NCBI RefSeq assembly: GCF_048403405.1
Contig: NZ_CP183129.1
Length of the DNA stretch: 64,000 bases
Source: Escherichia coli
GTDB lineage: Bacteria > Pseudomonadota > Gammaproteobacteria > Enterobacterales > Enterobacteriaceae
Strand: one strand, 5' to 3'
Below the pieces are notes generated by a model. It saw only the letters and a program-made list of their open reading frames with translations, ran no database searches and had not been told where the DNA came from. This document shows, piece after piece, positions 3,190 to 64,000 of this stretch. A program made the position numbers and the translations under genes. Every line of letters starts with the position of its first letter. Position 1 is the stretch's first letter.

Positions 3190-4059
3190 ATGGATCAGGC
3201 CGGCATTATTCGCGACCTTTTAATCTGGCTGGAAGGTCATCTGGATCAGCCCCTGTCGCTCGACAATGTAGCGGCGAAAGCAGGTTATTCCAAGTGGCAC
3301 TTACAGAGAATGTTTAAAGATGTCACTGGCCATGCTATTGGCGCGTATATTCGTGCTCGTCGTTTGTCGAAATCGGCGGTCGCACTACGCCTGACTGCGC
3401 GTCCGATTCTGGACATCGCGCTGCAATACCGCTTCGACTCTCAACAGACATTTACCCGCGCATTCAAGAAGCAGTTTGCCCAGACTCCTGCACTTTACCG
3501 CCGTTCTCCTGAATGGAGCGCCTTTGGTATTCGCCCGCCGCTACGCCTGGGTGAATTCACTATGCCAGAGCACAAATTTGTCACCCTGGAAGATACGCCG
3601 CTGATTGGTGTTACCCAGAGCTACTCCTGTTCGCTGGAGCAAATCTCTGATTTCCGCCATGAAATGCGTTATCAGTTCTGGCACGATTTTCTCGGCAACG
3701 CGCCGACCATTCCGCCGGTGCTCTACGGCCTGAATGAAACGCGTCCGAGTCAGGATAAAGACGACGAACAAGAGGTATTCTATACCACCGCGTTAGCCCA
3801 GGATCAGGCAGATGGCTATGTACTGACGGGGCATCCGGTGATGCTGCAGGGCGGCGAATATGTGATGTTTACCTATGAAGGTCTGGGAACCGGCGTGCAG
3901 GAGTTTATCCTGACGGTATACGGGACGTGCATGCCAATGCTCAACCTGACGCGCCGTAAAGATCAGGATATTGAGCGATACTACCCGGCAGAAGATGCCA
4001 AAGCGGGAGATCGCCCAATTAATCTGCGCTGTGAACTGCTGATTCCGATCCGTCGTTAA
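3190..4059 (+). CDS. rob: AraC/XylS-family transcriptional regulator Rob
   Basis: 289 aa, N-terminal AraC HTH and C-terminal GyrI-like domain; conserved position next to creA. Confidence 0.93.
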   Translation: MDQAGIIRDLLIWLEGHLDQPLSLDNVAAKAGYSKWHLQRMFKDVTGHAIGAYIRARRLSKSAVALRLTARPILDIALQYRFDSQQTFTRAFKKQFAQTPALYRRSPEWSAFGIRPPLRLGEFTMPEHKFVTLEDTPLIGVTQSYSCSLEQISDFRHEMRYQFWHDFLGNAPTIPPVLYGLNETRPSQDKDDEQEVFYTTALAQDQADGYVLTGHPVMLQGGEYVMFTYEGLGTGVQEFILTVYGTCMPMLNLTRRKDQDIERYYPAEDAKAGDRPINLRCELLIPIRR

Positions 4060-4703
4060 CGCTGCAGCTCATCTAATGCAGGGGCGTCCAGATGCGAGAT
4101 GTCCCCTGCGGTTTCAACGACCCAGCCAGACGCCAGCCACAGGCTTTCCTGATAATCCACGCGCGAAATAGAACAGTTACGCAGACGTAAGCGGCGCTCT
4201 GCCCATGCTGGTAATCCGAGAATCGTACTCACCAGGCATCCCAGTGCAATACCATGGCTCACCAGCAGCGGTCGGCTTCCCTGCGGTAAGTCCCGGCAAG
4301 ATTCCAGTGCCGCATTGACGCGATCGCTGAGCTCCTGCATTGACTCGCCTTCAGGAATACGCCCGTCAACGGTGCCATTGACCAGCTGCCGACGCCAGTT
4401 CTCTTCTTCTTCGGTCAGAGAATCGATATGTCTTTTTTCCAGCACACCCATGTTTAATTCACGCAGGCGAGAATCAAAGATGATGTCACAGCCGCAGGCC
4501 TGGGCGATGATTTCCGCCGTACGCCGGGTGCGTCCTAAATCGCTACTGATGATATGCGTAATGCCAAGCTCTTTGGCACGGGTTGCCACCTGCATCGCCT
4601 GTTGCTCACCTTTGGCGGTCAGCGGGCTGTCAGACTGGCCCTGAATACGTCGCTCGGCGTTCCACTGCGTTTCACCGTGGCGGACTAGGTATACCTGTAA
4701 CAT
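4056..4703 (-). CDS. gpmB: probable phosphoglycerate mutase GpmB (histidine phosphatase family)
   Basis: 215 aa, RHGETQWN catalytic motif at N-terminus. Confidence 0.92.
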   Translation of the reverse strand: MLQVYLVRHGETQWNAERRIQGQSDSPLTAKGEQQAMQVATRAKELGITHIISSDLGRTRRTAEIIAQACGCDIIFDSRLRELNMGVLEKRHIDSLTEEEENWRRQLVNGTVDGRIPEGESMQELSDRVNAALESCRDLPQGSRPLLVSHGIALGCLVSTILGLPAWAERRLRLRNCSISRVDYQESLWLASGWVVETAGDISHLDAPALDELQR

Positions 4704-4742: not shown

Positions 4743-5605
<863 letters not shown>

Positions 5606-15027: not shown

Positions 15028-16410
15028 TTATAAGTCGTCGAACACGCTAAGCGCGTCGGAGAGTTTTTTAACGCCAAAAATCTGCATCCCTTCCGGCGCT
15101 TTTTTCGGTACGTTAGCCGCCGGAACAATCGCCCGGCGAAAACCGTGTTTCGCCGCTTCAGAGATTCGTTCCTGACCGCTGGGCACCGGGCGGATCTCCC
15201 CTGCCAGCCCGACTTCACCAAACACCACCAGATCCTGCGGTAGCGGTCTGTCACGCAGGCTGGAAACCATCGCCAGCAGTAACGCTAAGTCGGCGCTGGT
15301 TTCGGTTACCTTCACGCCGCCGACCACGTTCACAAACACATCCTGATCGGCCATTTGCAGACCACCGTGACGGTGCAAGACAGCCAGCAGGATTGCCAGA
15401 CGGTTTTGTTCCAGCCCCACTGCCACGCGGCGCGGATTCGCCATCATCGAGTGATCGACCAGCGCCTGAATCTCCACCAGCAACGGACGCGTTCCTTCCC
15501 ACACCACCATCACGGAGCTGCCGGAGGTCACTTCATCTCCGCGACTTAAGAAAATTGCCGAAGGGTTGCTGACTTCACGCAGCCCCTGTTCGGTCATCGC
15601 GAAGACGCCCAGCTCATTCACCGCGCCGAAGCGGTTTTTATGGCTGCGCAAGGTGCGAAAACGGGAGTCGGCATCGCCATCCAAAAGCACCGAACAGTCG
15701 ATACAGTGTTCCAGCACTTTCGGGCCAGCCAGCGAACCATCTTTGGTTACGTGCCCCACCATGACAATCGCCACACCGCGCGTTTTGGCGAAGCGTGTCA
15801 AATAAGCCGCCGTTTCACGCACCTGCGCCACGCTGCCAGGCGATGATTGTACATCCGCCATATGCATCACCTGAATGGAGTCAATTACCATCAGCTTCGG
15901 TTGCTCTTCTTCGGCAATCAGGCAGATTTGCTCGATGCTGGTTTCCGACAACATATTGAGATTGTCAGTCGGCAGGCCAAGGCGATGAGCGCGCATTGCC
16001 ACCTGTTGCAGCGACTCTTCGCCGGTGACATACAGCGTTTTCATCTGCTGGGCCAGTTTGCACAGCGTTTGCAACAGCAGCGTGGATTTCCCCGCGCCTG
16101 GGTTACCGCCAATCAGAATGGCGCTTCCCGGCACCACCCCGCCGCCTAATACGCGGTCGAACTCTTTAAATCCGGTAGAAAAACGCGGCAGCTCCTCAAG
16201 GCTGATGTCGGAGAGTTTCTGGACTTTTGCCACTCCGGCGCTACCGGCATAGCCACTAAGACGCTCGTTACGCGCCACCGTTGGCGACGCAGCAAGACGC
16301 ACCTCGGTGATGGTGTTCCAGGCATGACAGGCACTGCACTGCCCCTGCCAGCGCGGATAATCGGCCCCGCATTCATTACAAACAAAGGCGCGTTTTGGAG
16401 CTTTTGCCAC
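15028..16410 (-). CDS. radA: DNA repair protein RadA (Sms)
   Basis: 460 aa from GTG start; C4 zinc finger, RecA-like Walker A GNPGAGKST, Lon-like C-terminus. Confidence 0.93.
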   Translation of the reverse strand: MAKAPKRAFVCNECGADYPRWQGQCSACHAWNTITEVRLAASPTVARNERLSGYAGSAGVAKVQKLSDISLEELPRFSTGFKEFDRVLGGGVVPGSAILIGGNPGAGKSTLLLQTLCKLAQQMKTLYVTGEESLQQVAMRAHRLGLPTDNLNMLSETSIEQICLIAEEEQPKLMVIDSIQVMHMADVQSSPGSVAQVRETAAYLTRFAKTRGVAIVMVGHVTKDGSLAGPKVLEHCIDCSVLLDGDADSRFRTLRSHKNRFGAVNELGVFAMTEQGLREVSNPSAIFLSRGDEVTSGSSVMVVWEGTRPLLVEIQALVDHSMMANPRRVAVGLEQNRLAILLAVLHRHGGLQMADQDVFVNVVGGVKVTETSADLALLLAMVSSLRDRPLPQDLVVFGEVGLAGEIRPVPSGQERISEAAKHGFRRAIVPAANVPKKAPEGMQIFGVKKLSDALSVFDDL

Positions 16411-16458
16411 GGTGTACCTCGTTAATGCTGTGCCGCCCGCAGGATGACGGGCAGGCAA

Positions 16459-17427
16459 TTACTTCTGATTCAGGCTGCCAGAGAGGATGCAGAATACCCC
16501 CATCAGGTCAGCGTGACGGATGGTGACTTCCGTCTTTTCATTCACTTTTGGCTTGGCATGGTAGGCAATCCCCAGCCCTGCCGCTTTGATCATCGGCAGG
16601 TCATTGGCTCCATCACCAATCGCCACGGTCTGCGCCAGCGGGATTTCATACTCCTGCGCGAGGCGAGTCAGAGTTTTCGCTTTGTACTGCGCGTCTACGA
16701 TGTCGCCGATCACATTGCCGGTAAATTTACCGTCCATGATCTCCAGTTCATTGGCTACCACGGCTGTCAGGCGCAGCTTGTCGCGCAGGTATTCAGCAAA
16801 GAAAGTAAAGCCGCCGGAGGCAATCGCCACTTTCCAGCCCAGCGTTTCCAGCTTGAGCACCAGTTGCGTTAAGCCTGGCATCAGCGGCAGATTTTCACGC
16901 ACCTGTTGCAGAATATTGGCGTCAGCGCCTTTCAGCGTCGCCACGCGGCTGCGCAGGCTGGCGGTAAAATCGAGTTCGCCGCGCATCGCCCGTTCGGTTA
17001 CCTCCGCCACCATCTCGCCCGTTCCGGCCAGTTTGGCAATTTCATCAATACATTCAATCTGGATGGCGGTGGAATCCATGTCCATCACCAGCAAACCCGG
17101 CGTGCGCAGGTGCGGGATTTTCCCCAGCGGCGCGACATCCAGCTGCGCTTCGTGGGCCAGGCGCGTAGCCCGCGCGGTGAGTGAACCTGCCAGACGAATC
17201 ACCTGATAATCTTCCACGCACCAGGCGGCAACAATCACCATCGCAGCGCCCAGTTTGCTCTGGTATTGGGTCAGACGTTGTTTATCCAGCCCACGACCAT
17301 ACAGCAGCCAGCCGCTACGACCTGCGTGGTAATCCAGTGGCATCACTTCATCACCACTTAATGAAAGAGGCAGACCCGGCCATAAAGAGACATCTTCAGG
17401 CAGGTCGCACCAGGTAATGTTAGGCAT
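16459..17427 (-). CDS. serB: phosphoserine phosphatase SerB
   Basis: 322 aa from MPNITWCDLPEDVSLW; HAD motif DMDSTAI; ORF track extends upstream into IS150-flanking DNA. Confidence 0.92.
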   Translation of the reverse strand: MPNITWCDLPEDVSLWPGLPLSLSGDEVMPLDYHAGRSGWLLYGRGLDKQRLTQYQSKLGAAMVIVAAWCVEDYQVIRLAGSLTARATRLAHEAQLDVAPLGKIPHLRTPGLLVMDMDSTAIQIECIDEIAKLAGTGEMVAEVTERAMRGELDFTASLRSRVATLKGADANILQQVRENLPLMPGLTQLVLKLETLGWKVAIASGGFTFFAEYLRDKLRLTAVVANELEIMDGKFTGNVIGDIVDAQYKAKTLTRLAQEYEIPLAQTVAIGDGANDLPMIKAAGLGIAYHAKPKVNEKTEVTIRHADLMGVFCILSGSLNQK

Positions 17428-17542: not shown

Positions 17543-18394
17543 TTAAACACGAGGCATATAGGTCTGATTCCGATATTCAATTGGAGTCAGACCTTTTAAT
17601 TTCAGGCTAATTCTTCTGCTGTTGTAGTATTCAATATATTCCGTAACAGCATCCTTCAGTTCGCTTATATTACTGAACTCATCAAGATAAAAACACTCCG
17701 ACTTTAAGGTTCCAAAGAAACACTCCACCACAGCATTATCCAGACAATTGCCTTTTCTGGACATGCTTTGTTTAATACCATGTTCTTTAAGGATATTTTG
17801 ATATCTTCTCATACGATACTGCCATCCCTGGTCAGAGTGCAGAACAGGATGCTCGTGAGGATTAAGCTTTTTGAATGCCTGATCGAGCATATTCTCAACC
17901 ATGTTCATCACTGGTCTTTCCGAAAGGCTGTAAGAAATAACTTCGTTGTTGAAGAGATCTATTACTGGAGACAAATACAGCTTGCGCCCATTGACTACAA
18001 ATTCAGTAACATCGGTAACCCACTTCTCGTTTGGCCGCGTAGCCTTGAAATCTCTTTGGAGAACATTAGGGGCGGTTTGCCCTACCTCTCCTCTGTAAGA
18101 GCGGTATCGCTTGACCTTAATCGCTGCTTTAAGTGAGAGGGTTCCCATCAGGCGCTGAACAGCTTTATGGTTAATCTGTTTCCCTTCTCGATGAAGAGAC
18201 AGCGTTACCCTACGGTATCCGTATCGGCCTCTATTCTCGTGATAAATCTCACCAATACGCTTTTTAACGTCCGCATACTTGTCAGGCTTGCTGAGAGCCT
18301 TTAGATGGTAATAAAACGTACTGCGCGGTATCTCCGCAGCCCTGAGAAGCTCATCAAGAGGATAAAACTGCCTTAGCTCGTTGAGTACTTTTAC
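17543..18394 (-). CDS. insK: IS150 transposase orfB (InsK), expressed by -1 frameshift from orfA
   Basis: DDE-type integrase core (ORF track shows 201 aa C-terminal part from internal Met); upstream extent approximate. Confidence 0.8.
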
Positions 18395-31296: not shown

Positions 31297-32883
31297 TTAA
31301 TGCTCGCGGGTCTGGTGGAACTGAACGTCCGGATAACGTTCCTGCGCCAGGCGCAGGTTGACCATGCTGGTAGCGATGTAAGCGAGGTTATCGCCGCCAT
31401 CAAGCGCCAGTTGGCTTTCGTTCTTACGCTTGAACTCTTCGAATTTCTTCGCGTCCGCACATTCTACCCAGCGGGCAGTGGCAACGTTGACTGACTCATA
31501 CACTGCTTCAACGTTGTATTCGCTCTTCAGACGCGCTACCACCACATCAAACTGCAGCACACCAACCGCACCAACGATCAGATCGTTGTTGGAGATCGGA
31601 CGGAACACCTGCACTGCGCCCTCTTCGGAAAGCTGTACCAGCCCTTTAAGCAGCTGTTTTTGCTTCAGCGGATCTTTCAGGCGGATACGACGGAACAGTT
31701 CCGGCGCGAAGTTCGGAATACCGGTGAACTTCATCATCTCACCCTGGGTAAAGGTGTCGCCGATCTGAATAGTGCCGTGGTTATGCAGGCCGAGGATATC
31801 GCCCGGATACGCTTCTTCAACGTGCGAACGGTCACCCGCCATAAAGGTCAGCGCGTCGGAGATCACCACATCTTTCGCAGTACGCACCTGGCGCAGCTTC
31901 ATGCCTTTTTCATATTTACCGGACACCACACGCATAAACGCCACGCGGTCGCGGTGTTTCGGGTCCATGTTGGCCTGAATTTTAAATACGAAGCCTGTAA
32001 ATTTGTCTTCGCTCGCCTCTACGGTACGGGTATCAGTCTGACGCGGCATCGGCGCAGGTGCCCACTCCACCAGACCATCCAGCATATGATCGACGCCGAA
32101 GTTACCCAGCGCAGTACCAAAGAATACCGGAGTGATTTCGCCCGCAAGGAACAATTCTTTGTCGAACTCGTTAGACGCGCCTTTCACCAGCTCCAGTTCA
32201 TCACGCAGCTGCTGCGCCAGATCTTCACCAACCGCAGCGTCGAGATCCGGGTTATTCAGCCCTTTAACAATACGGACTTCCTGAATGGTGTGGCCTTTAC
32301 CGCTCTGATAAAGATAGGTTTCATCTTTATAAAGGTGGTAAACGCCTTTAAACAGCTTGCCGCAGCCAATCGGCCAGGTGATCGGTGCGCAGCCGATTTT
32401 CAGCTCGTTCTCAACTTCATCGAGCAGTTCCATCGGGTCGCGGATATCACGGTCAAGTTTGTTCATAAAGGTGAGGATCGGCGTATCGCGCAGACGGGTA
32501 ACTTCCATCAGCTTGCGGGTACGATCTTCAACACCTTTTGCGGCGTCGATAACCATCAGGCAGCAGTCCACCGCCGTCAGGGTACGATAGGTATCTTCCG
32601 AGAAGTCTTCGTGCCCCGGGGTGTCGAGCAGGTTAACCAGGCAATCGTGATACGGAAACTGCATCACAGACGTAGTAATGGAGATCCCACGCTGCTTTTC
32701 CATCTCCATCCAGTCCGACTTAGCGTGCTGGTTGGAACCACGGCCTTTTACTGTACCGGCGGTCTGAATGGCCTGTCCGAACAGCAGCACCTTCTCGGTG
32801 ATGGTAGTCTTACCGGCGTCTGGGTGAGAAATAATTGCAAAGGTTCTTCTTTTCGCTACCTCTGCGGCCAAAAGGCTTGTCAT
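31297..32883 (-). CDS. prfC: peptide chain release factor 3 (GTPase)
   Basis: 528 aa, G1 motif [20 protein letters not shown]; start at [15 protein letters not shown]. Confidence 0.93.
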
Positions 32884-33038
32884 AATTGTTGTCTCTTTGA
32901 TTATGTACAATCATATGTACAAAGAAAAATTCATGCCGCTGATTGTACATTTTGGAGGTATCAGAGCATAGCAGAACATGATCAGTAGGTGTATTTGTAG
33001 CCAAAGAACATTTGTACATGCAGCAATCTTTGTTCCAT

Positions 33039-33067
33039 TGACACTGTTTATTCATACAGTTAAAAAT
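33039..33067 (+). promoter_or_regulatory. sigma70-like promoter for the dinI-like gene
   Basis: TTGACA (33039-33044), 17-bp spacer, AAAAAT (33062-33067). Confidence 0.5.
33045..33060. promoter_or_regulatory. LexA box 1 (SOS box)
   Basis: CTGTTTATTCATACAG fits CTGT-N8-ACAG; lies in promoter spacer. Confidence 0.65.
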
Positions 33068-33071
33068 AACA

Positions 33072-33087
33072 CTGTATACAAACACAG
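33072..33087. promoter_or_regulatory. LexA box 2 (SOS box)
   Basis: CTGTATACAAACACAG fits CTGT-N8-ACAG; 16 bp upstream of dinI-like ATG. Confidence 0.7.
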
Positions 33088-33102
33088 TGTAGAGGGATTT
33101 TT

Positions 33103-33351
33103 ATGCGTATTGAGATCTGCATAGCCAAAGAGAAAATGACTAAAATGCCAAACGGTGCTGTGGATGCGTTAAAGGAAGAATTAACTCGACGCATCAGTAA
33201 GCGTTATGACGATGTAGAGGTGATCGTAAAAGCCACCAGCAACGATGGCCTTTCTGTTACGCGCACCGCCGATAAAGATTCAGCTAAAACTTTTGTTCAG
33301 GAAACTCTGAAAGATACCTGGGAGTCTGCTGACGAGTGGTTTGTTCACTAA
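33103..33351 (+). CDS. DinI-family protein (prophage-borne DinI homologue)
   Basis: 82 aa [31 protein letters not shown]...[11 protein letters not shown]; C-terminal WESADxWF motif as in DinI. Confidence 0.85.
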
Positions 33352-33417
33352 TTAACACGTAAAATCGGTAACGGCTGGAAATCATTCAATACTCGCACTA
33401 TCGGAAGTTCACCAGCC

Positions 33418-33460
33418 AACCGCAGCACGTTCTTGCATACGACGTGTCTGCGGTTTTTCA
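33418..33460 (+). terminator. probable intrinsic terminator after dinI-like gene
   Basis: Imperfect stem CCGCAGCACGT...ACGTGTCTGCGG followed by TTTTTC. Confidence 0.5.
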
Positions 33461-33777
33461 ACCATTCAGATACAGCACTCTCATCACATTCATTCTTCCG
33501 CATTAAAGTATATATGACCATATCACCTTAATATTTTTCTTCTTCAGATAAAAATTGTTATCTATGTATACTTTTAAACCGAATCCGTGTAGAGTCTCTA
33601 CCTAAGTTAGTTCACAGCTACCCCTTCAGTTTGCGCCATTAACTTCCTGACTTTTGCCGCTATCTGTAAGCATTCCTGTATACCTGAAACTACAGGGTTC
33701 ATCTACGAACTTTAAGAACACCCAGGATAAAAATTGTCAACTATATTATATATAACACCATACTAATTCGAGGCTAT

Positions 33778-33891
33778 ATGGACAGCATACTGATAATCAC
33801 TTCACTACTTATCATATTCAGCATTTTTAGTCATGCTCTAATAAAATTAGGGGTTGGCATATCCAATAACCCGGACAAAACCGATGTATAA
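33778..33891 (+). CDS. unlisted 37-codon ORF encoding a hydrophobic peptide (hypothetical small membrane protein)
   Basis: GAGG 4 nt upstream of ATG; [37 protein letters not shown]: one predicted TM helix plus polar tail; too short for the ORF track. Confidence 0.35.
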
Positions 33892-33959
33892 GTCAACATA
33901 TCCTGAATCAGACATACAATATTGCAATGAAAACCAATAATATTTTAAGGAATATCTTC

Positions 33960-34193
33960 ATGAAATCAAATGACACCCTAAAGTGGTTCCCCGCGCAGCT
34001 TCCTGAAGTCAGAATTATCCTGGGAGATGCTGTCGTGGAAGTGGCAAAACAGGGAAGACCTATCAATACCAGAACATTGCTTGATTACATTGAAGGAAAC
34101 ATAAAGAAAAAGTCATGGCTGGATAACAAAGAATTATTACAAACAGCGATATCAGTTCTTAAAGACAACCAAAATTTAAATGGTAAAGTGTAA
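33960..34193 (+). CDS. YdfK/YnaE-like prophage protein (so-called cold-shock-induced family; function unknown)
   Basis: 77 aa from MKSNDTLKWFPAQLPEVRIILG..., AAGGA RBS; recalled similarity to Rac/Qin ynaE/ydfK, which sit beside pin genes. Confidence 0.6.
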   Translation: MKSNDTLKWFPAQLPEVRIILGDAVVEVAKQGRPINTRTLLDYIEGNIKKKSWLDNKELLQTAISVLKDNQNLNGKV

Positions 34194-34573
34194 TAAACAC
34201 CCCCTGAAAAATAATTTTTCAATGCATTAAAAAATATCAACAACTACGTTATTCCGCAACAACCTACTTTTTTTACCATTTTTCCACTTTAACAACTTTT
34301 TGCTCCACTTTTCCAAGACCAAACAAATTGAAATCTGGCTAAAACAACATACAACACTATTATTCGTCTTTCTCGAGTCCGCCCGGAGTTCGAAAAACAA
34401 ACCGAGTTAAAGCCATTTTTCAAAAAATCGATTTTAGGTTACACCAAAATTACGGGACTGCATCCAAATTTGTTTATTTTCGAACGTATACATACAAATA
34501 TGTGCAATAATAAGCGAAATAATTTTTGGATATGCATTATGATATGTACACCAATTTCGTATAGAGTCTCACT

Positions 34574-35164
34574 ATGTCTCGAATTTTTGCTTACTGTCGG
34601 ATATCAACTCTGGATCAGACCACCGAAAATCAACGCCGGGAAATCGAAAGTGCAGGCTTTAAAATCAAACCTCAGCAAATAATCGAAGAACACATTAGCG
34701 GCTCAGCAGCAACCAGTGAGCGTCCTGGTTTTAACCGGTTGCTTGCTCGCCTGAAATGTGGTGATCAATTGATTGTGACAAAACTGGATCGCCTTGGTTG
34801 TAATGCAATGGATATCAGGAAAACAGTGGAACAACTGACCGAAACAGGTATCAGAGTGCATTGCTTAGCATTGGGGGGCATTGACCTGACCAGTCCAACA
34901 GGAAAAATGATGATGCAAGTAATTTCAGCAGTCGCTGAATTTGAACGAGACCTTTTACTTGAACGCACTCATTCCGGGATAGTAAGAGCCCGGGGCGCAG
35001 GGAAACGTTTTGGTCGACCACCTGTGTTAAATGAAGAACAGAAACAGGTGGTATTCGAACGAATTAAGTCAGGTGTAAGTATAAGTGCCATTGCCCGGGA
35101 ATTCAAAACCTCGCGGCAAACCATTTTAAGAGCCAAAGCAAAACTTCAGACACCTGACATATAA
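34574..35164 (+). CDS. pin: serine recombinase, Pin-type DNA invertase (PinR/PinQ-like)
   Basis: 196 aa; catalytic Ser region [15 protein letters not shown] motif, C-terminal HTH. Confidence 0.88.
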
Positions 35165-35391
35165 AAAATAATCTCGGTGTGAGATGCTTTACGTCTTCCA
35201 AGCCCCCTTCCTTGCCGTAAATGGAAAGATACATCTAATTATAGAATTTATATGTTTTACCCTACGGCAGTGCTGGCCATTCAATATCCTGTGCAGTTGA
35301 CGTATCAACACGGTTCAGCAACACCCGATACTTTTTCCAGGCTTCCAGCAACGGGGTTTCTTCCTCCGTTGCATATACAGCTCACCTTTTT

Positions 35392-46050: not shown

Positions 46051-48608
46051 CGTCCACCTCCGGAGAACAGACCACCATCGCGCATCTGCCCGGTCACAAC
46101 ATCCATTGCCGCCTTACGGGCTACGTCATAAACAGCCTTCAGCGCCTGTGGCCCTATCTGACCGTTCGTGCCGTCGTTGTTAATCACCACATGGTTATTC
46201 TGCTCAAACGTCCCGGACGCCTGCGACCGGCTGTCCGCCATGCTGCCCGGTGTACCGACATAACCACCGGTGGCATAGCCGCGCATCAGCCGGTAGAGAT
46301 TCCCCACGCCAATCCGGCTGGTTGCCTCCTTCGTGAAGACAAATTCACCACGGTGAACAATCCCCGCAGGCTCATATTTGCCGCCGGTTCCCGTAAATCC
46401 CCCGGTCGCAAAATGGAATTTCGCCGCAGCTGCCTGAATGGCTGTACCGCCTGACGCTGATGCGTCACCACCGACAGCACCGCCAATGACACTGCCCACA
46501 CTCCCGACGATCCCCACCATTGCCTGCTTAAGCAGAATTTCTGTCATCATGGACAGCACGGAACGGGTGAAGCTGCGCCAGTTCTGCTCACTGCCGGTCA
46601 GCATCGCCGCCATATTCTGCGCAATACCATCAAAGGTCTGCGTGGCTGCACTTTTAACCTGCGACATACTGTCCGTGGCACTCTCTTTCCACTCGCTCCA
46701 GCCGGACCTGAGGCCTGCCATCCAGTTCCCGCGAAGCAGGTCTTCAGCCGCCCAGGTCTTTTTCTGCTCTGACATGACGTTATTCAGCGCCAGAGGATTA
46801 TCGCCATACTGTTCCTTCAGGCGCTGTTCTGTGGCTTCCCGTTCTGCCTGCCGGTCAGTCAGCCCCCGGCTTTTCGCATCAATGGCGGCCCGTTTTGCCC
46901 GTTGCTGCTGTGCGAATTTATCCGCCTGCTGCGCCAGCGCGTTCAGGCGCTCCTGATACGTAACCTTGTCGCCAAGTGCAGCAAGCTGGCGTTTGTACTC
47001 CAGCGTCTCATCTTTATGCGCCAGCAGGGATTTCTCCTGTGCAGACAGCTGGCGACGTTGCGCCGCCTCCTCCAGTACCGCGAACTGACTCTCCGCCTTC
47101 CACAAATCCCGGCGCTGCTGGCTGATTTTCTCATTTGCTCCGGCATGCTTCTCCAGCGTCCGGAGTTCTGCCTGAAGCGTCAGCAGGGCAGCATGAGCAC
47201 TGTCTTCCTGACGATCGCCCGCAGACACCTTCACGCCGGACTGTTTCGGCTTTTTCAGCGTCGCTTCATAATCCTTTTTCGCCGCCGCCATCAGCGTGTT
47301 GTAATCCGCCTGCAGGATTTTCCCGTCTTTCAGTGCCTTGTTCAGTTCTTCCTGACGGGCGGTATATTTCTCCAGCGGCGTCTGCAGCCGTTCGTAAGCC
47401 TTCTGCGCCTCTTCGGTATATTTCAGCCGTGACGCTTCGGTATCGCTCTGCTGCTGCGCATTTTTGTCCTGTTGAGTCTGCTGCTCAGCCTTCTTTCGGG
47501 CGGCTTCAAGCGCAAGACGGGCCTTTTCACGATCATCCCAGTAACGCGCCCGCGCTTCATCGTTAACAAAATAATCATCCTTGCGCAGATTCCAGATGTC
47601 GTCTGCTTTCTTAAACGCAGCCTCTGCCTTAATCAGCATCTCCTGCGCGGTATCAGGACGACCAATATCCAGCACCGCATCCCACATGGATTTGAATGCC
47701 CGCGCAGTCCTGTCTGCCCAGGTCTCCAGCGTGCCCATGTTCTCTTTCAGGCGGCGGGTCTGGTCATCAAACCCTTTCGTTGCGGCCTCGTTCGCCGCCT
47801 GCAATGCCCCGGCTTCATCGCCGGAACGCTGCAACTGAGCAACATACGCAATCTGCTCCGCCGTCACGTTATGGAACTGGCGTGCCATCGCCGTCAGCCC
47901 CGACGTCGGGTCTGTGGTCAGCTTCCCGAAGGCTTCAGCGACCTTGTCCACCTCCACGCCGGATGCAGAGGAGAAACGCGCCACACTCTGGCTGATGGAC
48001 GCAATCTGAGCCTCACCGCTTACCCCCGCCTTAACCAGTGCGCTGAGTGACTCGCTGGTCTGGTTAAACGTCAGCCCTGCCGCCTGCCCGGCTCTGGACA
48101 GGACCAGCATACGATCTGCCGTCAGTCCCGCCTGATTGCCGGAAAGGACCAGCGTTTTGTTGAAATCGGACAGGGTTGAGTTGCCCTGATACCAGGCATA
48201 CGCCAGTGCACCGGTCGCCACCGCCAGCGAGGTGGCCCCCACCATCGGCAGGGTGATCGCACCGGCAAGCCCCCTGAACATGGGGATCATCCCGCCGAAG
48301 GAGTCCTTCACCTGCCCCCCCTGTTGCAGCAGGATGAGCCACGGATTCTGCCCCCCTGCAAGCTGCGTGGCCACGTCGGTGAACTGTGCAGGCAGCATAC
48401 GCATGGCGGCTTTATACTGCCCGACGGAAATCCCCGCTTTCTGTGCAGCCAGCGCCTGTCGGCTCAGCGACTGTTCAACGACTGCCGCTGTTTTTTTCGC
48501 ATCACTTTCCGTACCGGAAAAATGACGCCTGACTCTGGCCATCTGCTCGTCAAATCTGGCCGCATCCAGACTCAAATCAACGACCAGATCGCCTACCGGT
48601 TCAGCCAT
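46047..48608 (-). CDS. H: tail tape measure protein H
   Basis: 853 aa, coiled-coil rich, lambda H-like. Confidence 0.92.
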   Translation of the reverse strand: MAEPVGDLVVDLSLDAARFDEQMARVRRHFSGTESDAKKTAAVVEQSLSRQALAAQKAGISVGQYKAAMRMLPAQFTDVATQLAGGQNPWLILLQQGGQVKDSFGGMIPMFRGLAGAITLPMVGATSLAVATGALAYAWYQGNSTLSDFNKTLVLSGNQAGLTADRMLVLSRAGQAAGLTFNQTSESLSALVKAGVSGEAQIASISQSVARFSSASGVEVDKVAEAFGKLTTDPTSGLTAMARQFHNVTAEQIAYVAQLQRSGDEAGALQAANEAATKGFDDQTRRLKENMGTLETWADRTARAFKSMWDAVLDIGRPDTAQEMLIKAEAAFKKADDIWNLRKDDYFVNDEARARYWDDREKARLALEAARKKAEQQTQQDKNAQQQSDTEASRLKYTEEAQKAYERLQTPLEKYTARQEELNKALKDGKILQADYNTLMAAAKKDYEATLKKPKQSGVKVSAGDRQEDSAHAALLTLQAELRTLEKHAGANEKISQQRRDLWKAESQFAVLEEAAQRRQLSAQEKSLLAHKDETLEYKRQLAALGDKVTYQERLNALAQQADKFAQQQRAKRAAIDAKSRGLTDRQAEREATEQRLKEQYGDNPLALNNVMSEQKKTWAAEDLLRGNWMAGLRSGWSEWKESATDSMSQVKSAATQTFDGIAQNMAAMLTGSEQNWRSFTRSVLSMMTEILLKQAMVGIVGSVGSVIGGAVGGDASASGGTAIQAAAAKFHFATGGFTGTGGKYEPAGIVHRGEFVFTKEATSRIGVGNLYRLMRGYATGGYVGTPGSMADSRSQASGTFEQNNHVVINNDGTNGQIGPQALKAVYDVARKAAMDVVTGQMRDGGLFSGGGR

Positions 48609-60136: not shown

Positions 60137-60331
60137 ATGTCAACGAAGAACAGAACCCGCAGAACAACAACCCGCAACATCCGCTTTCCTAACCAAATGA
60201 TTGAACAAATTAACATCGCTCTTGATCAAAAAGGGTCCGGGAATTTCTCAGCCTGGGTCATTGAAGCCTGCCGTCGGAGACTAACGTCAGAAAAGAGAGC
60301 ATATACATCAATCAAAAGTGATGAAGAATGA
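60137..60331 (+). CDS. small basic protein, lambda right-end ORF (possible ribbon-helix-helix DNA-binding fold)
   Basis: 64 aa MSTKNRTRRTTTRNIRFPNQMIEQINIALDQKGSGNFSAWVIEACRRRL...; the 155-aa ORF-track call spans cos and is probably an over-extension. Confidence 0.55.
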   Translation: MSTKNRTRRTTTRNIRFPNQMIEQINIALDQKGSGNFSAWVIEACRRRLTSEKRAYTSIKSDEE

Positions 60332-60581
60332 ATATCCCGGTTTCTTTACCTCCCCTCCCACCCCGCACAGGACTGGCGAGCGTGTGGGACAAATATGTGA
60401 GTCATAAACGCCTTATCCTCAGAAATGCAGTTGGCATCCGAACAGGACGATATTGTAAATTCACCTAATTACGAGGCATTGCAGTAGTTGAATTGTAGTT
60501 CTGTATTAGCCTGACAGTGACAGAATGCGATATTGACTCTGTCACAGGTGAAATAGTTTGAATGGTTAGCAGTTATGGTGA

Positions 60582-60788
60582 TCAGTCAACCACCAAGGAA
60601 TAATCCTTCGAATTCTTATCGTGCTTCACCAACGCTGCCTCAATTGCCCTGAATGCTTCCAGAGACACTTGATGTTCTATACATGCAATTACAACATCCG
60701 GGTAACCCATCGAAATGGTGCTATTAAGCATAGTTTTTACACGAATCTGCTCCTGGGAGGGGGCATCAGTGTATTGATCTTTATGCAT
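60582..60788 (-). CDS. hypothetical 68-aa phage protein (lambda right-arm accessory ORF)
   Basis: [57 protein letters not shown]... Confidence 0.5.
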
Positions 60789-61083
60789 TTTGTCGCTCCA
60801 TGCGTTTGCTCTTCACTTGCGGCTAAAAATATAACGTCAAATCACTCAGCATGAAAGAGTGAAAGTTTCAGCGCGTTTCCCTTACATAATCTGTCATTTG
60901 TATTCTCTTCAGGCATACCGGAAAGACTAGGTATTGTCACACAACCAATACCATCGACAATCGAGATTTATATCTATTCGGTAATGTTTAAATATAACAA
61001 AACCCCGTAAAAACGAGGTTTATGGGTAATTTGTATTGTTGAATAGCATCTGATGAGAAATTGATGCTAATACTATAAACATA

Positions 61084-61257
61084 CTAGATTAAATCAATCT
61101 TGATATCATAGCTTTCAAGACCAGTCATTTTTTCCCGTGCAGTAAACTGGATACTGGTAACTTCTTTCCCGGTCTTTTTCTTAAGCTCAATGATTTTTTT
61201 TGTTATATATTCAGAAATATCTGCTTCTGTTTTTGTTTTTAACTCTTCAATGTTCAT
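61084..61257 (-). CDS. GnsA/GnsB-family small protein
   Basis: 57 aa from MMNIEELKTKTEADISEYITKKIIELKKKTGKEVTSIQFTAREKMTGLESYDIKIDLI; recalled similarity to GnsB of Qin. Confidence 0.7.
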   Translation of the reverse strand: MNIEELKTKTEADISEYITKKIIELKKKTGKEVTSIQFTAREKMTGLESYDIKIDLI

Positions 61258-61429
61258 CATTTCCTCTTTTAGTCTGTTATGACTTTCCTGGTACACAGTA
61301 GTGTCAATTATATGGAGCAAACGTATAAAAGATAAGATGAAACATCGCAATAATCAACATACGACGGTCTAAATTTCACACAAACAGATAAAGATGATTA
61401 TCATTTATTATCAATGCATTAGAATCAAA

Positions 61430-61660
61430 TCAATTCAAGAGTCTCATTGCTGCTTCCAGAATTTCTTCTGAAGTTACATGTCGATCCGCTGCTACATAAA
61501 TGACTTTATGATCTCCGGTCAGAGATGGAAACCCTGCAGCCATTACAGTGAGGTGTGTTGTTTCGCCATTTGGATATTCACGCATGATGGTGTTAACTCC
61601 GGTCATCACTGGCACTACCATTGCTGGTTCAGAGTTAAAAAAAACTATTATTTTTTTCAT
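61430..61660 (-). CDS. hypothetical 76-aa protein (prophage moron region)
   Basis: From MKKIIVFFNSEPAMVVPVMTGVNTIMREYPNGETTHL...; no recognised motif. Confidence 0.45.
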   Translation of the reverse strand: MKKIIVFFNSEPAMVVPVMTGVNTIMREYPNGETTHLTVMAAGFPSLTGDHKVIYVAADRHVTSEEILEAAMRLLN

Positions 61661-61931
61661 AATGTTACCGTAATATGTGAGTATCCATCGACTAGACACT
61701 AAGCAAAAAAGCTCCCGAAGGAGCCTTCATTTTCACTTTCTTAAATCTAACGACAGACGGCTAACATTTAAGTATTGTGAAATATTATCAAATGTAATCA
61801 TCATTGATTTACAAAAGATACATTTTGCCCCGAAAGGATTCCTGTCAGAAACATCAAAAGATGATGTTCTATACTGAGAACCATGGCAACACGGGCATCT
61901 AAAGTGAATATGGTTTGTAATATTTTCTACC

Positions 61932-62144
61932 TCAAAGTGCCACTACATGAACAGCCGCGGGGCCTTTAGGTCCGTTCTCAATACCAAATTCGACTTCCTG
62001 ATTCTCAGTTAACGTTTTGAAATCGTTGCTCTGAATAGCTGAGAAATGGACAAACACATCTTTGCTACCATCTTTCGGCGTGATGAAACCAAAACCTTTT
62101 TCAGGGTTAAACCATTTCACTAAACCAGTCATTTTGTTAGACAT
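61932..62144 (-). CDS. cold-shock-domain protein (CspA family; CspI/CspB-like prophage copy)
   Basis: [38 protein letters not shown]... with RNP1 motif KGFGFI. Confidence 0.9.
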
Positions 62145-62147
62145 CAT

Positions 62148-62508
62148 TATTACCTTTTGAAGAAGTTAGCCCTTGGGCAGAATGGTCCGAAAAAAAAATA
62201 TCAGAGAGAAAAACCAACAAGGAAATCTCAAGAGGTACAAATAATAAATTTATAACAATGACTGCTTCAGATAATTTTGTAACAAACCAGAACACCATTA
62301 ACGCATGATTAACCAACCATAGCAAGGATTACTTTTGTAAAGAAAAACACACGAATGAAACAATAGCTTTATTTATTAATAAAACGTGTCATTCTGTCTA
62401 ATGACCTTTTATCTTACCCTTAAGATTTCAAGGATTTTGACTCATGGAAGAGTCCTTTTTATTTAAATTTCACATTCAGCGCTAAAAATAATCCGATTTA
62501 ATATTAAT
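62148..62508 (-). promoter_or_regulatory. long AT-rich 5' leader of the csp gene
   Basis: About 360 bp non-coding AT-rich region upstream of the csp start, as typical for CspA-family mRNAs. Confidence 0.45.
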
Positions 62509-63536
<1,028 letters not shown>

Positions 63537-63643
63537 GGATATTTATCAGGATTTATCGGCTTCAAATCCCTGGATATGTTAAATCTTACCTCACCAGTGA
63601 TGGGCACTGGCGGGAGGAGGATGTCAATCTGATAAACACAGAG

Positions 63644-63910
63644 GTGACTATGGATTACACAAATCTACCAAAACAAACTTTTGCTGATTTAATCGCACTC
63701 AGGCAAGCAGTCGTAGCCCTAATCAACTTGTTGCCGGAGAAGGAAAAGGAATTAGTTAAAGCGCTTCTTAACAGAACTGCCGCCGATTTTTCATCATATC
63801 CACTGACAGATGACCTTGCGGACCTTCCTGAATTAATTGCAGCGTCCGCCATTAAGCTTACTGAAGAGATTTACCCTCCTCAAAAATCTTCACAAAATTC
63901 CTGCGAGTAA
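63644..63910 (+). CDS. hypothetical 88-aa acidic protein between endolysin and the expected holin position
   Basis: ORF followed by hairpin terminator; opposite strand to lysis genes. Confidence 0.4.
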   Translation: MTMDYTNLPKQTFADLIALRQAVVALINLLPEKEKELVKALLNRTAADFSSYPLTDDLADLPELIAASAIKLTEEIYPPQKSSQNSCE

Positions 63911-63924
63911 CTTCAATGCAATAA

Positions 63925-63960
63925 TCGTAAAACGCCGCAAACTGCTCATCGCGGCGTTTT
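63925..63960. terminator. hairpin terminator
   Basis: ACGCCGC-aaactgctcat-GCGGCGT followed by TTTTTTTTC. Confidence 0.6.
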
Positions 63961-64000
63961 TTTTCATCTTCAGAAGGAATCAGCACCGACAATTTTTTAT

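Follow-up and report, generated by a model that had tools for sequence, protein, structure and literature searches.

How is a dinI-like gene at the very end of an Escherichia coli prophage controlled, and what could its product do there? The gene in question lies in a stretch of 64,000 nucleotides (nt) of an E. coli chromosome (assembly GCF_048403405.1, contig NZ_CP183129.1), which was analysed at its full length and is referred to below as the window. In the list of open reading frames (ORFs) its coding sequence occupies positions 33103-33351 of the plus strand, stop codon included, and the product of 82 amino acids (aa) is recorded in RefSeq as WP_001217539.1, 'DinI-like family protein'. Together with a predicted promoter, two predicted LexA operators and a predicted terminator it forms a unit on the plus strand (33038-33460, as delimited by the limits of similarity) which, judged from these signals and boundaries, is an autonomous prophage moron cassette. 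Control of its promoter by LexA, that is by the SOS response, is supported, because the putative operators are good and conserved, a precedent exists in the Gifsy prophages and an SOS box has been annotated in VT1-Sakai. We put the probability at about 0.65 that the cassette is an SOS-controlled moron, in which a LexA-repressed paralogue of dinI would be induced by DNA damage and would modulate RecA*.

The promoter region between 33038 and 33102 reads on the plus strand TTGACA CTGTTTATTCATACAG TT AAAAAT AACA CTGTATACAAACACAG TGTAGAGGGATTTTT and is followed by the ATG at 33103. A promoter scan places the -35 hexamer TTGACA at 33038-33043 and the -10 hexamer AAAAAT at 33062-33067, at a distance of 18 nt. 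An earlier note on this DNA had described the same two hexamers as a strong promoter with a 17-nt spacer; the hexamers stand, the spacer has to be corrected to 18 nt, and as to strength the scan gives a consensus score of 10/12 for the whole promoter and nothing further. With a spacer of 17 nt the -10 hexamer would become TAAAAA, and the 18-nt reading is favoured because natural variants such as GAAAAT (L015) fit it, the variants keeping xAAAAT. A Shine-Dalgarno sequence GAGGG can be read directly at 33092-33096 of the plus strand, 6 nt before the ATG. The two CTGT-N8-ACAG motifs pointed out in the same note are both present and exact: the distal operator CACTGTTTATTCATACAGTT extends from 33042 to 33061 with its core CTGTTTATTCATACAG at 33044-33059, and the proximal operator CACTGTATACAAACACAGTG from 33070 to 33089 with its core CTGTATACAAACACAG at 33072-33087, both on the plus strand. 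Their overlap with the promoter was likewise borne out, since the distal box fills the spacer between the -35 and -10 hexamers, sharing 2 nt with the former, and the proximal box lies over the start of transcription predicted from this promoter. In these respects the boxes resemble operators of the LexA regulon: each combines the CTGT-N8-ACAG motif with an index in the proven range, they overlap the (predicted) core promoter and start, and they are conserved in homologous promoters. A terminator-like hairpin of the minus strand at 33069-33090 was discarded as merely the palindromic proximal LexA box.

The quality of the operators was assessed on 20-mers with a heterology-index-type matrix, in which lower values are better; it was compiled from 20 known E. 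coli operators of the literature, and all values are approximate. The distal and proximal boxes score 5.0 and 5.1, respectively, inside the range of 0.5-9.2 covered by the reference operators, and are the two best matches among all 20-mers of the window; 300 sequences of 64 kb simulated with a first-order Markov model contained no site scoring 5.2 or better. The window holds three copies of the bare CTGT-N8-ACAG motif where 0.69 would be expected, two of them at the dinI-like promoter. The remaining one, at 46541, lies inside the tape-measure gene, scores worse than 11 and was set aside as a chance occurrence. The third-best LexA-like site of the window, TACTGGAGACAAATACAGCT at 17963-17982 (score 8.3, with 0.04 sites this good expected per window), falls within serB at its 3′ end and precedes the start codon of radA by about 107 nt.

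The arrangement of the two boxes is kept among homologues. A class of proteins of 81-82 aa encoded at prophage ends comprises those of the window, cdtI, 1720a-02, PhiR12_2, JLK-2012, phiNP and VT1-Sakai, with protein identity down to 56%, and in all seven the distal box is found 40-42 nt and the proximal box 13-14 nt before the ATG, the DNA further upstream being unrelated. The Klebsiella homologue P12620-1 has the proximal box only. Among 45 contigs of the IMG/VR database 17 distinct variants of the promoter were distinguished, with changes located in the centres and flanks of the boxes: every variant has ACAG in both boxes and a -35 hexamer of TTGACA or TTGATA, and most retain CTGT, the exceptions having CTGG in the distal box. 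The IMG/VR protein search returned relatives of 98-100% identity only, that is, promoter micro-variation and no deep divergence, and the diverged homologues were therefore taken from the phage GenBank collection. Homologues of 77-79 aa from the nin region (mEp237, SEN34, FSL SP-016, Chris1, two Klebsiella phages and pAEv1818) differ in carrying just one box, located 15-19 nt ahead of the ATG; in most of them a small ORF and ninB follow, an arrangement like that of the Gifsy prophages. The cassette DNA itself is 91-100% identical in cdtI, 2H10, PhiR63_1, mEp460, VT1-Sakai and dozens of Stx1a, Stx2a and Stx2c phages, and among 5426 complete E. coli genomes 1512 (at least 28%) contain the module at 80% or more of its length, with up to nine matching places per genome.

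That the product is a DinI homologue, as had been proposed, is confirmed by matches to the Pfam family DinI (PF06183, E=1.5e-19, model positions 1-63 of 63 on protein residues 16-80), to PHROG 189 'RecA filament binding protein DinI' (E=4.4e-31) and to the E. coli DinI structures 1GHH and 7YWA (E=7.9e-13 for 1GHH over residues 1-81); as in the DinI family, the whole protein of about 80 aa is a single domain. It shares 49% identity with E. coli DinI, from which it differs by two insertions of 2 aa, and it scores 72.5 bits against the NCBIfam DinI equivalog NF007893, whose cut-off is 111. This score below the cut-off, which agrees with the 'DinI-like' of RefSeq, makes it a paralogue rather than the orthologue of chromosomal DinI. 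The residues of DinI important for its action on RecA filaments have been defined by cryo-electron microscopy and mutagenesis (Gao et al., PMC9926225): L13, L21, W71, W77 and F78 form a pocket for F203 of RecA, and E24, E69 and D76 face a basic patch of RecA. In the alignment the counterparts of the hydrophobic pocket in the window protein are M15, L23, W73, W79 and F80, in this order, and those of the acidic patch are E26, D71 and E78. All eight contact positions are thus identical or conservatively replaced, and the determinants of binding to the RecA filament are therefore retained.

Downstream of the gene an intrinsic terminator is predicted on the plus strand at 33418-33460, formed by a 14-bp stem with one bulge (33418-33455) and a following UUUUU; the fold of 33345-33475 has a minimum free energy of -31.9 kcal/mol (z=-3.1). 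The hairpin starts 67 nt past the stop codon, the ORF list of the window contains no plus-strand ORF in between, and the next ORFs of this strand, beyond the terminator, are ynaM- and ydfK-type genes. The limits of the unit emerge from a comparison with nine phages or contigs whose flanks are unrelated to those of the window, among them 1720a-02 (with int upstream), PhiR12_2, VT1-Sakai (with a yehV junction), JLK-2012 and several IMG/VR contigs. Similarity to these nine begins at 33035-33038, at the -35 hexamer, and stops in some at about 33346-33355, with the stop codon, and in others at 33425-33458, close to or at the terminator; the blocks of homology with cdtI and VT1-Sakai also end at the terminator. 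Promoter, operators, gene and terminator therefore seem to move as one unit. The gene is enclosed by its own predicted promoter and its own predicted terminator, and the mosaic boundaries coincide with the ends of the unit in unrelated contexts, as is characteristic of a moron. An Rfam scan of 32500-35300 yielded a single, sub-threshold hit, to the Shigella small RNA CssrB on the minus strand at 33421-33558 (24 bits against a gathering score of 76), which was set aside; nearly all of its score comes from the terminator hairpin, read in reverse. The CssrB-like stretch overlaps an unannotated minus-strand ORF of 57 aa at 33348-33521, without a family match.

The location in a prophage, also claimed before, is established by the junction with prfC. 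This gene occupies 31297-32883 on the minus strand, and the right junction of the prophage lies within it at 32822: comparison of the window shows identity with K-12 up to about 32863 and identity with phages cdtI and PhiR63_1 from 32822 onward. When attL, attR and attP were compared, the core of the attachment site (att) was found at 32822-32841 as TTTGC(A/C)ATTATTTCTCACCC, reading TTTGCAATTATTTCTCACCC on the minus strand. On the strength of these identity limits and of the att comparison, the element is a lambdoid prophage that has inserted into prfC at its 5′ end. The dinI-like gene, about 260 bp inside its right end, is the outermost prophage gene on the prfC side, and inward from it come ynaM/ydfK, a pin-type invertase and then tail-fibre, tail and head genes. 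The segment 32600-34600 is 100% identical in strains MS 69-1 and TUM1226, and in TUM1226 the complete prophage spans from yjjG/int to prfC and is identical to the window over 60236-64000. The TUM1226 copy encodes a 224-aa cI repressor of the LexA family (S24) with a divergent cro-like gene, and for this reason RecA*-dependent cleavage would be relevant to induction of the prophage, and the effect of a DinI paralogue on induction suggested by the earlier note is plausible.

The closest known relatives are VT1-Sakai H0001, cdtI gp30 and their counterparts in 2H10, mEp460, PhiR63_1 and the Stx phages, which have the same cassette, in the same position at the prophage end adjoining att, and proteins 96-100% identical to that of the window. 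The flanks differ, with integration in prfC for the window and cdtI but in yehV for VT1-Sakai, and so does the neighbouring cargo, which consists of ynaM/ydfK/pin in the window, cdtABC in cdtI and a YkgJ-like gene in VT1-Sakai. In the VT1-Sakai record AP000400, H0001 (DinI) is already preceded by an annotated 'putative promoter of H0001 and H0002 genes' and by a 'LexA protein, putative SOS box' that corresponds to the proximal box only; the boxes of VT1-Sakai, with heterology-index-like scores of 8.9 and 6.7, are weaker than those of the window. Chromosomal DinI of E. coli (b1061; 1GHH, 7YWA) has the same family and fold as the window protein and is encoded by a known SOS gene (PMC2669165), with which a bioRxiv study (10.1101/2022.08.08.503262) also deals; in K-12 dinI a single LexA box precedes the ATG by 19 nt, whereas the window gene has two, at 13 and 41 nt.

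More distant prophage paralogues of DinI behind LexA boxes are those of the Gifsy prophages and of the nin region (mEp237, SEN34, FSL SP-016, Klebsiella phages), with proteins of 77-79 aa that are 39-53% identical to that of the window. The dinI homologues of Gifsy-1/2/3 are LexA-controlled and head operons (Lemire et al., PMC3121763), and a survey of the Salmonella SOS response has shown that the Gifsy homologues are damage-induced and have one box 19 nt before the ATG (PMC8072944). In these systems dinI is the first gene of an operon and is followed by a small antirepressor gene and irsA (Gifsy) or by ninB (the others), whereas the window gene is monocistronic, has two boxes and adjoins att. 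Assignment of the window gene to a Gifsy-type dinI-antirepressor operon was rejected on these grounds, given the terminator 67 nt past the stop codon with no ORF before it. In the linear plasmid prophage PhiKO2 and the Serratia phage OS31 a dinI-like gene lies beyond the tail-fibre genes in divergent orientation. The OS31 homologue has a LexA box 14 bp before its start codon (PMC7556043), and the same article reports, by secondary citation, that the din-like gene of PhiKO2 is LexA-regulated. Both differ from the window in host and phage type and in the single box described, and in OS31 translation of the gene is coupled to that of a second one. Tum of coliphage 186, with split versions in Fels-2 and PSP3, is a further LexA-controlled phage gene with a DinI module (PMC3121763), but it encodes 146 aa, with an antirepressor half fused to a DinI half; a Tum-type fusion was rejected for the window protein, a bare DinI domain of 82 aa whose match to DinI covers residues 1-81.

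For LexA binding, inducibility, binding to RecA and the direction of the effect we infer the following course of events. In the undamaged lysogen LexA dimers would occupy both operators, in the spacer and at the start of transcription, and would exclude RNA polymerase. Upon DNA damage RecA* filaments would trigger self-cleavage of LexA, the operators would be cleared and the 82-aa protein would be made, this derepression being independent of inactivation of the phage's own repressor. The hydrophobic pocket of the protein would then take F203 of RecA, and its acidic C-terminal helix would face K232, R243 and K245. According to PMC9926225, the groove of RecA occupied by DinI is also used by LexA, UmuD and lambda CI. 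Through this shared groove an additional dose of DinI would stabilise the filaments and compete with the slowly cleaved UmuD and S24-type CI. As a best guess, the threshold for prophage induction and SOS mutagenesis would on balance be raised or delayed.

Several points weigh against this interpretation. The -10 hexamer matches the consensus at only 4 of 6 positions and the 18-nt spacer is sub-optimal; a distance of 28 bp, or about 2.7 helical turns, separates the operator centres and makes cooperative binding of LexA less than obvious. The NCBIfam score below the cut-off (72.5 versus 111 bits) and the two 2-aa insertions mark the protein as a paralogue. Non-polar deletions of the Gifsy dinI homologues left induction unchanged (PMC3121763), a comparison that is imperfect because the Gifsy prophages use antirepressors and not cleavable repressors. 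The sign of the effect on induction is uncertain, as DinI either stabilises filaments or inhibits the coprotease depending on dose, and a literature search found no experimental study of this E. coli cassette.

It is on the sign of the effect that the main rival differs. With the same regulation, and at the moderate doses that this promoter would supply, the DinI paralogue might mainly stabilise RecA*, prolong the SOS response and render CI cleavage and prophage induction more complete in the manner of a feed-forward commitment. DinI lengthens and stabilises RecA filaments, bridging five protomers (Gao et al., PMC9926225), the RecA-contact residues are conserved in the window protein, and the prophage cI repressor is of the cleavable LexA family. 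Competition is nevertheless to be expected from the position of DinI in the groove of lambda CI and UmuD (PMC9926225), and the dose is not fixed by the sequence; we regard the reversed sign as unlikely, though far from negligible. At the other extreme, the boxes might be non-functional look-alikes and the gene constitutive or silent. The imperfect -10 hexamer would fit this, as would the fact that for this cassette operator function is predicted from sequence. Not one of the 300 simulated windows, however, contained even one site as good as either box, the boxes are kept in position and core while their centres and flanks vary, and homologous prophage genes have been found experimentally to be SOS-induced (PMC3121763, PMC8072944), which leaves the look-alike explanation scarcely credible.

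Two further explanations accept the operators and assign a different role to the product or to the protein that binds them. The window protein could be an SOS-induced antirepressor, or the partner of one, directed in the style of 186 Tum or Gifsy against the repressor of its own or a co-resident prophage. DinI modules have repeatedly been tied to LexA-controlled antirepressors (Tum, PSP3, Gifsy; PMC3121763), and the PHROG 189 profile has 151 positions, of which the window protein matches 71-149 only, which suggests longer family members. Against this, the DinI domain leaves no space for an antirepressor half in 82 aa, no ORF between stop codon and terminator could provide a co-transcribed antirepressor, the Gifsy activity maps to the gene downstream and not to dinI (PMC3121763), and the repressor of this prophage is of the self-cleaving type; an antirepressor role is accordingly highly improbable. 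The other explanation involves a phage protein that would bind the boxes in addition to or instead of host LexA. The TUM1226 prophage (L101) encodes at 16246-16572, about 5.7 kb past the end of the window, a stand-alone LexA DNA-binding-domain protein of 108 aa without the S24 cleavage domain, its gene lying between a methyltransferase gene and rusA, and such an uncleavable domain might re-close the cassette operators and host SOS boxes during lytic growth. The protein matches Pfam LexA_DNA_bind (PF01726, E=3.8e-19) and PDB 1LEA (E=7.5e-16), its recognition helix RSVNAAVEHLRAL is nearly identical to that of LexA (RSPNAAEEHLKAL), and its gene co-occurs with the dinI cassette in cdtI, 2H10, mEp460, 1720a-02, PhiR63_1 and Stx2c phages. 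The N-terminal domain of LexA alone, on the other hand, binds DNA weakly, and the gene lies outside the window. Moreover, among the LexA-domain matches listed there are few Stx1a or Stx2a records, though many of these carry the cassette, and conversely SfII, SfIV and SfV carry the LexA-domain gene but are absent among the dinI matches listed. We consider involvement of this protein at the cassette improbable. With these alternatives weighed, the reading of the cassette as a LexA-repressed, damage-induced dinI paralogue that would modulate RecA* is retained.

The 108-aa protein was encountered as an observation in its own right. Phage records with its gene number 61, among them those of SfII, SfIV, SfV, mEp460, cdtI and Stx2c phages, a literature search found no functional study of it, and it could be an uncleavable mimic of LexA. 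A further LexA box, TACTGTATTTATGAACAGTG (score 4.95), is found outside the window at 17010-17029 of the TUM1226 prophage, in the nin/Q region about 98 nt upstream of a gene for a KilA-N-domain protein, and may mark a second SOS-controlled, antirepressor-like locus. From such predicted elements the prophage seems to be wired to the SOS response at several points.

Integration has also altered the neighbourhood of the cassette. The first 14 or so codons of prfC and its whole promoter region have been replaced by phage DNA (32822-32883, and upstream to about 33037); the N-terminus of the K-12 protein begins MTLSPYLQEVAKRR, and the phage-supplied start in the window differs from it. In the lysogen prfC would therefore be expressed from signals supplied by the phage, and this region stands back to back with the predicted LexA-controlled dinI-like promoter. 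Between prfC and the latter, four TGTACA hexamers lie within 115 bp (32904-33018), out of ten in the whole window. Counting both sides of the att core there are eight, arranged symmetrically with four per arm of attP, the cluster of the other arm being situated just upstream of int (5345-5401 in the TUM1226 prophage; clusters at 3691-3747 and 3994-4108 in locus L003). They are probably arm-type sites of the integrase unrelated to dinI control; a role as dinI regulatory sites was rejected in view of the matching cluster by int and their absence from homologous cassettes in other contexts.

On the inner side, the cargo between cassette and tail fibres (33778-35164) consists of a small YnaM/YnfT-type ORF, a ydfK-type cold-shock gene and a Pin-type serine invertase (34574-35164), which adjoins a truncated tail-fibre-assembly gene as in the Qin and Rac prophages of K-12. 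A relic of about 150 nt was noticed in a K-12-like genome (L102, 2001-2152), between ecpE and ykgJ, that corresponds to 33294-33445 of the window at about 86% identity. It covers the final 58 nt of the dinI-like gene together with the terminator and immediately precedes ykgJ; most E. coli genomes contain a match to this fragment. Since a YkgJ-like gene follows the dinI cassette at once in VT1-Sakai, the locus of ykgJ has the look of a fossil left by this prophage cargo region.

The observation made in the earlier note is correct, and its interpretation is sound as far as sequence analysis reaches. The dinI-like feature is a well-populated and already annotated kind of prophage cargo: the gene, an SOS box and the location in prophages are in public records, and the regulatory principle has been published for related prophages. 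What is added here is detail and not a new phenomenon, namely the two operators, the exact boundaries of the cassette and the conserved RecA contacts. A bolder proposal, and a rather doubtful one, would make the end-of-prophage DinI paralogue with two operators a distinct phage-specific class that gates, with SOS timing, the RecA*-stimulated cleavage of lambdoid CI and of UmuD; in phages like the present one the gate might be shut again during lytic growth by the uncleavable LexA-domain protein, recognising the same operators. If such a gate existed, the threshold of induction, and hence the release of toxin, would be set collectively for all co-resident prophages. The two-operator paralogue occurs in E. 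coli genomes, often in several copies, the number of cassettes ranging from none to several, and in Stx- and Cdt-converting phages. One comparative study has noted a DinI-like gene of a prophage among those linked to emerging quinolone resistance (PMC10575684). If the cassette modulates the coprotease activity of RecA*, its dose could affect the induction of Stx and Cdt prophages by antibiotics, SOS mutagenesis and tolerance to quinolones.

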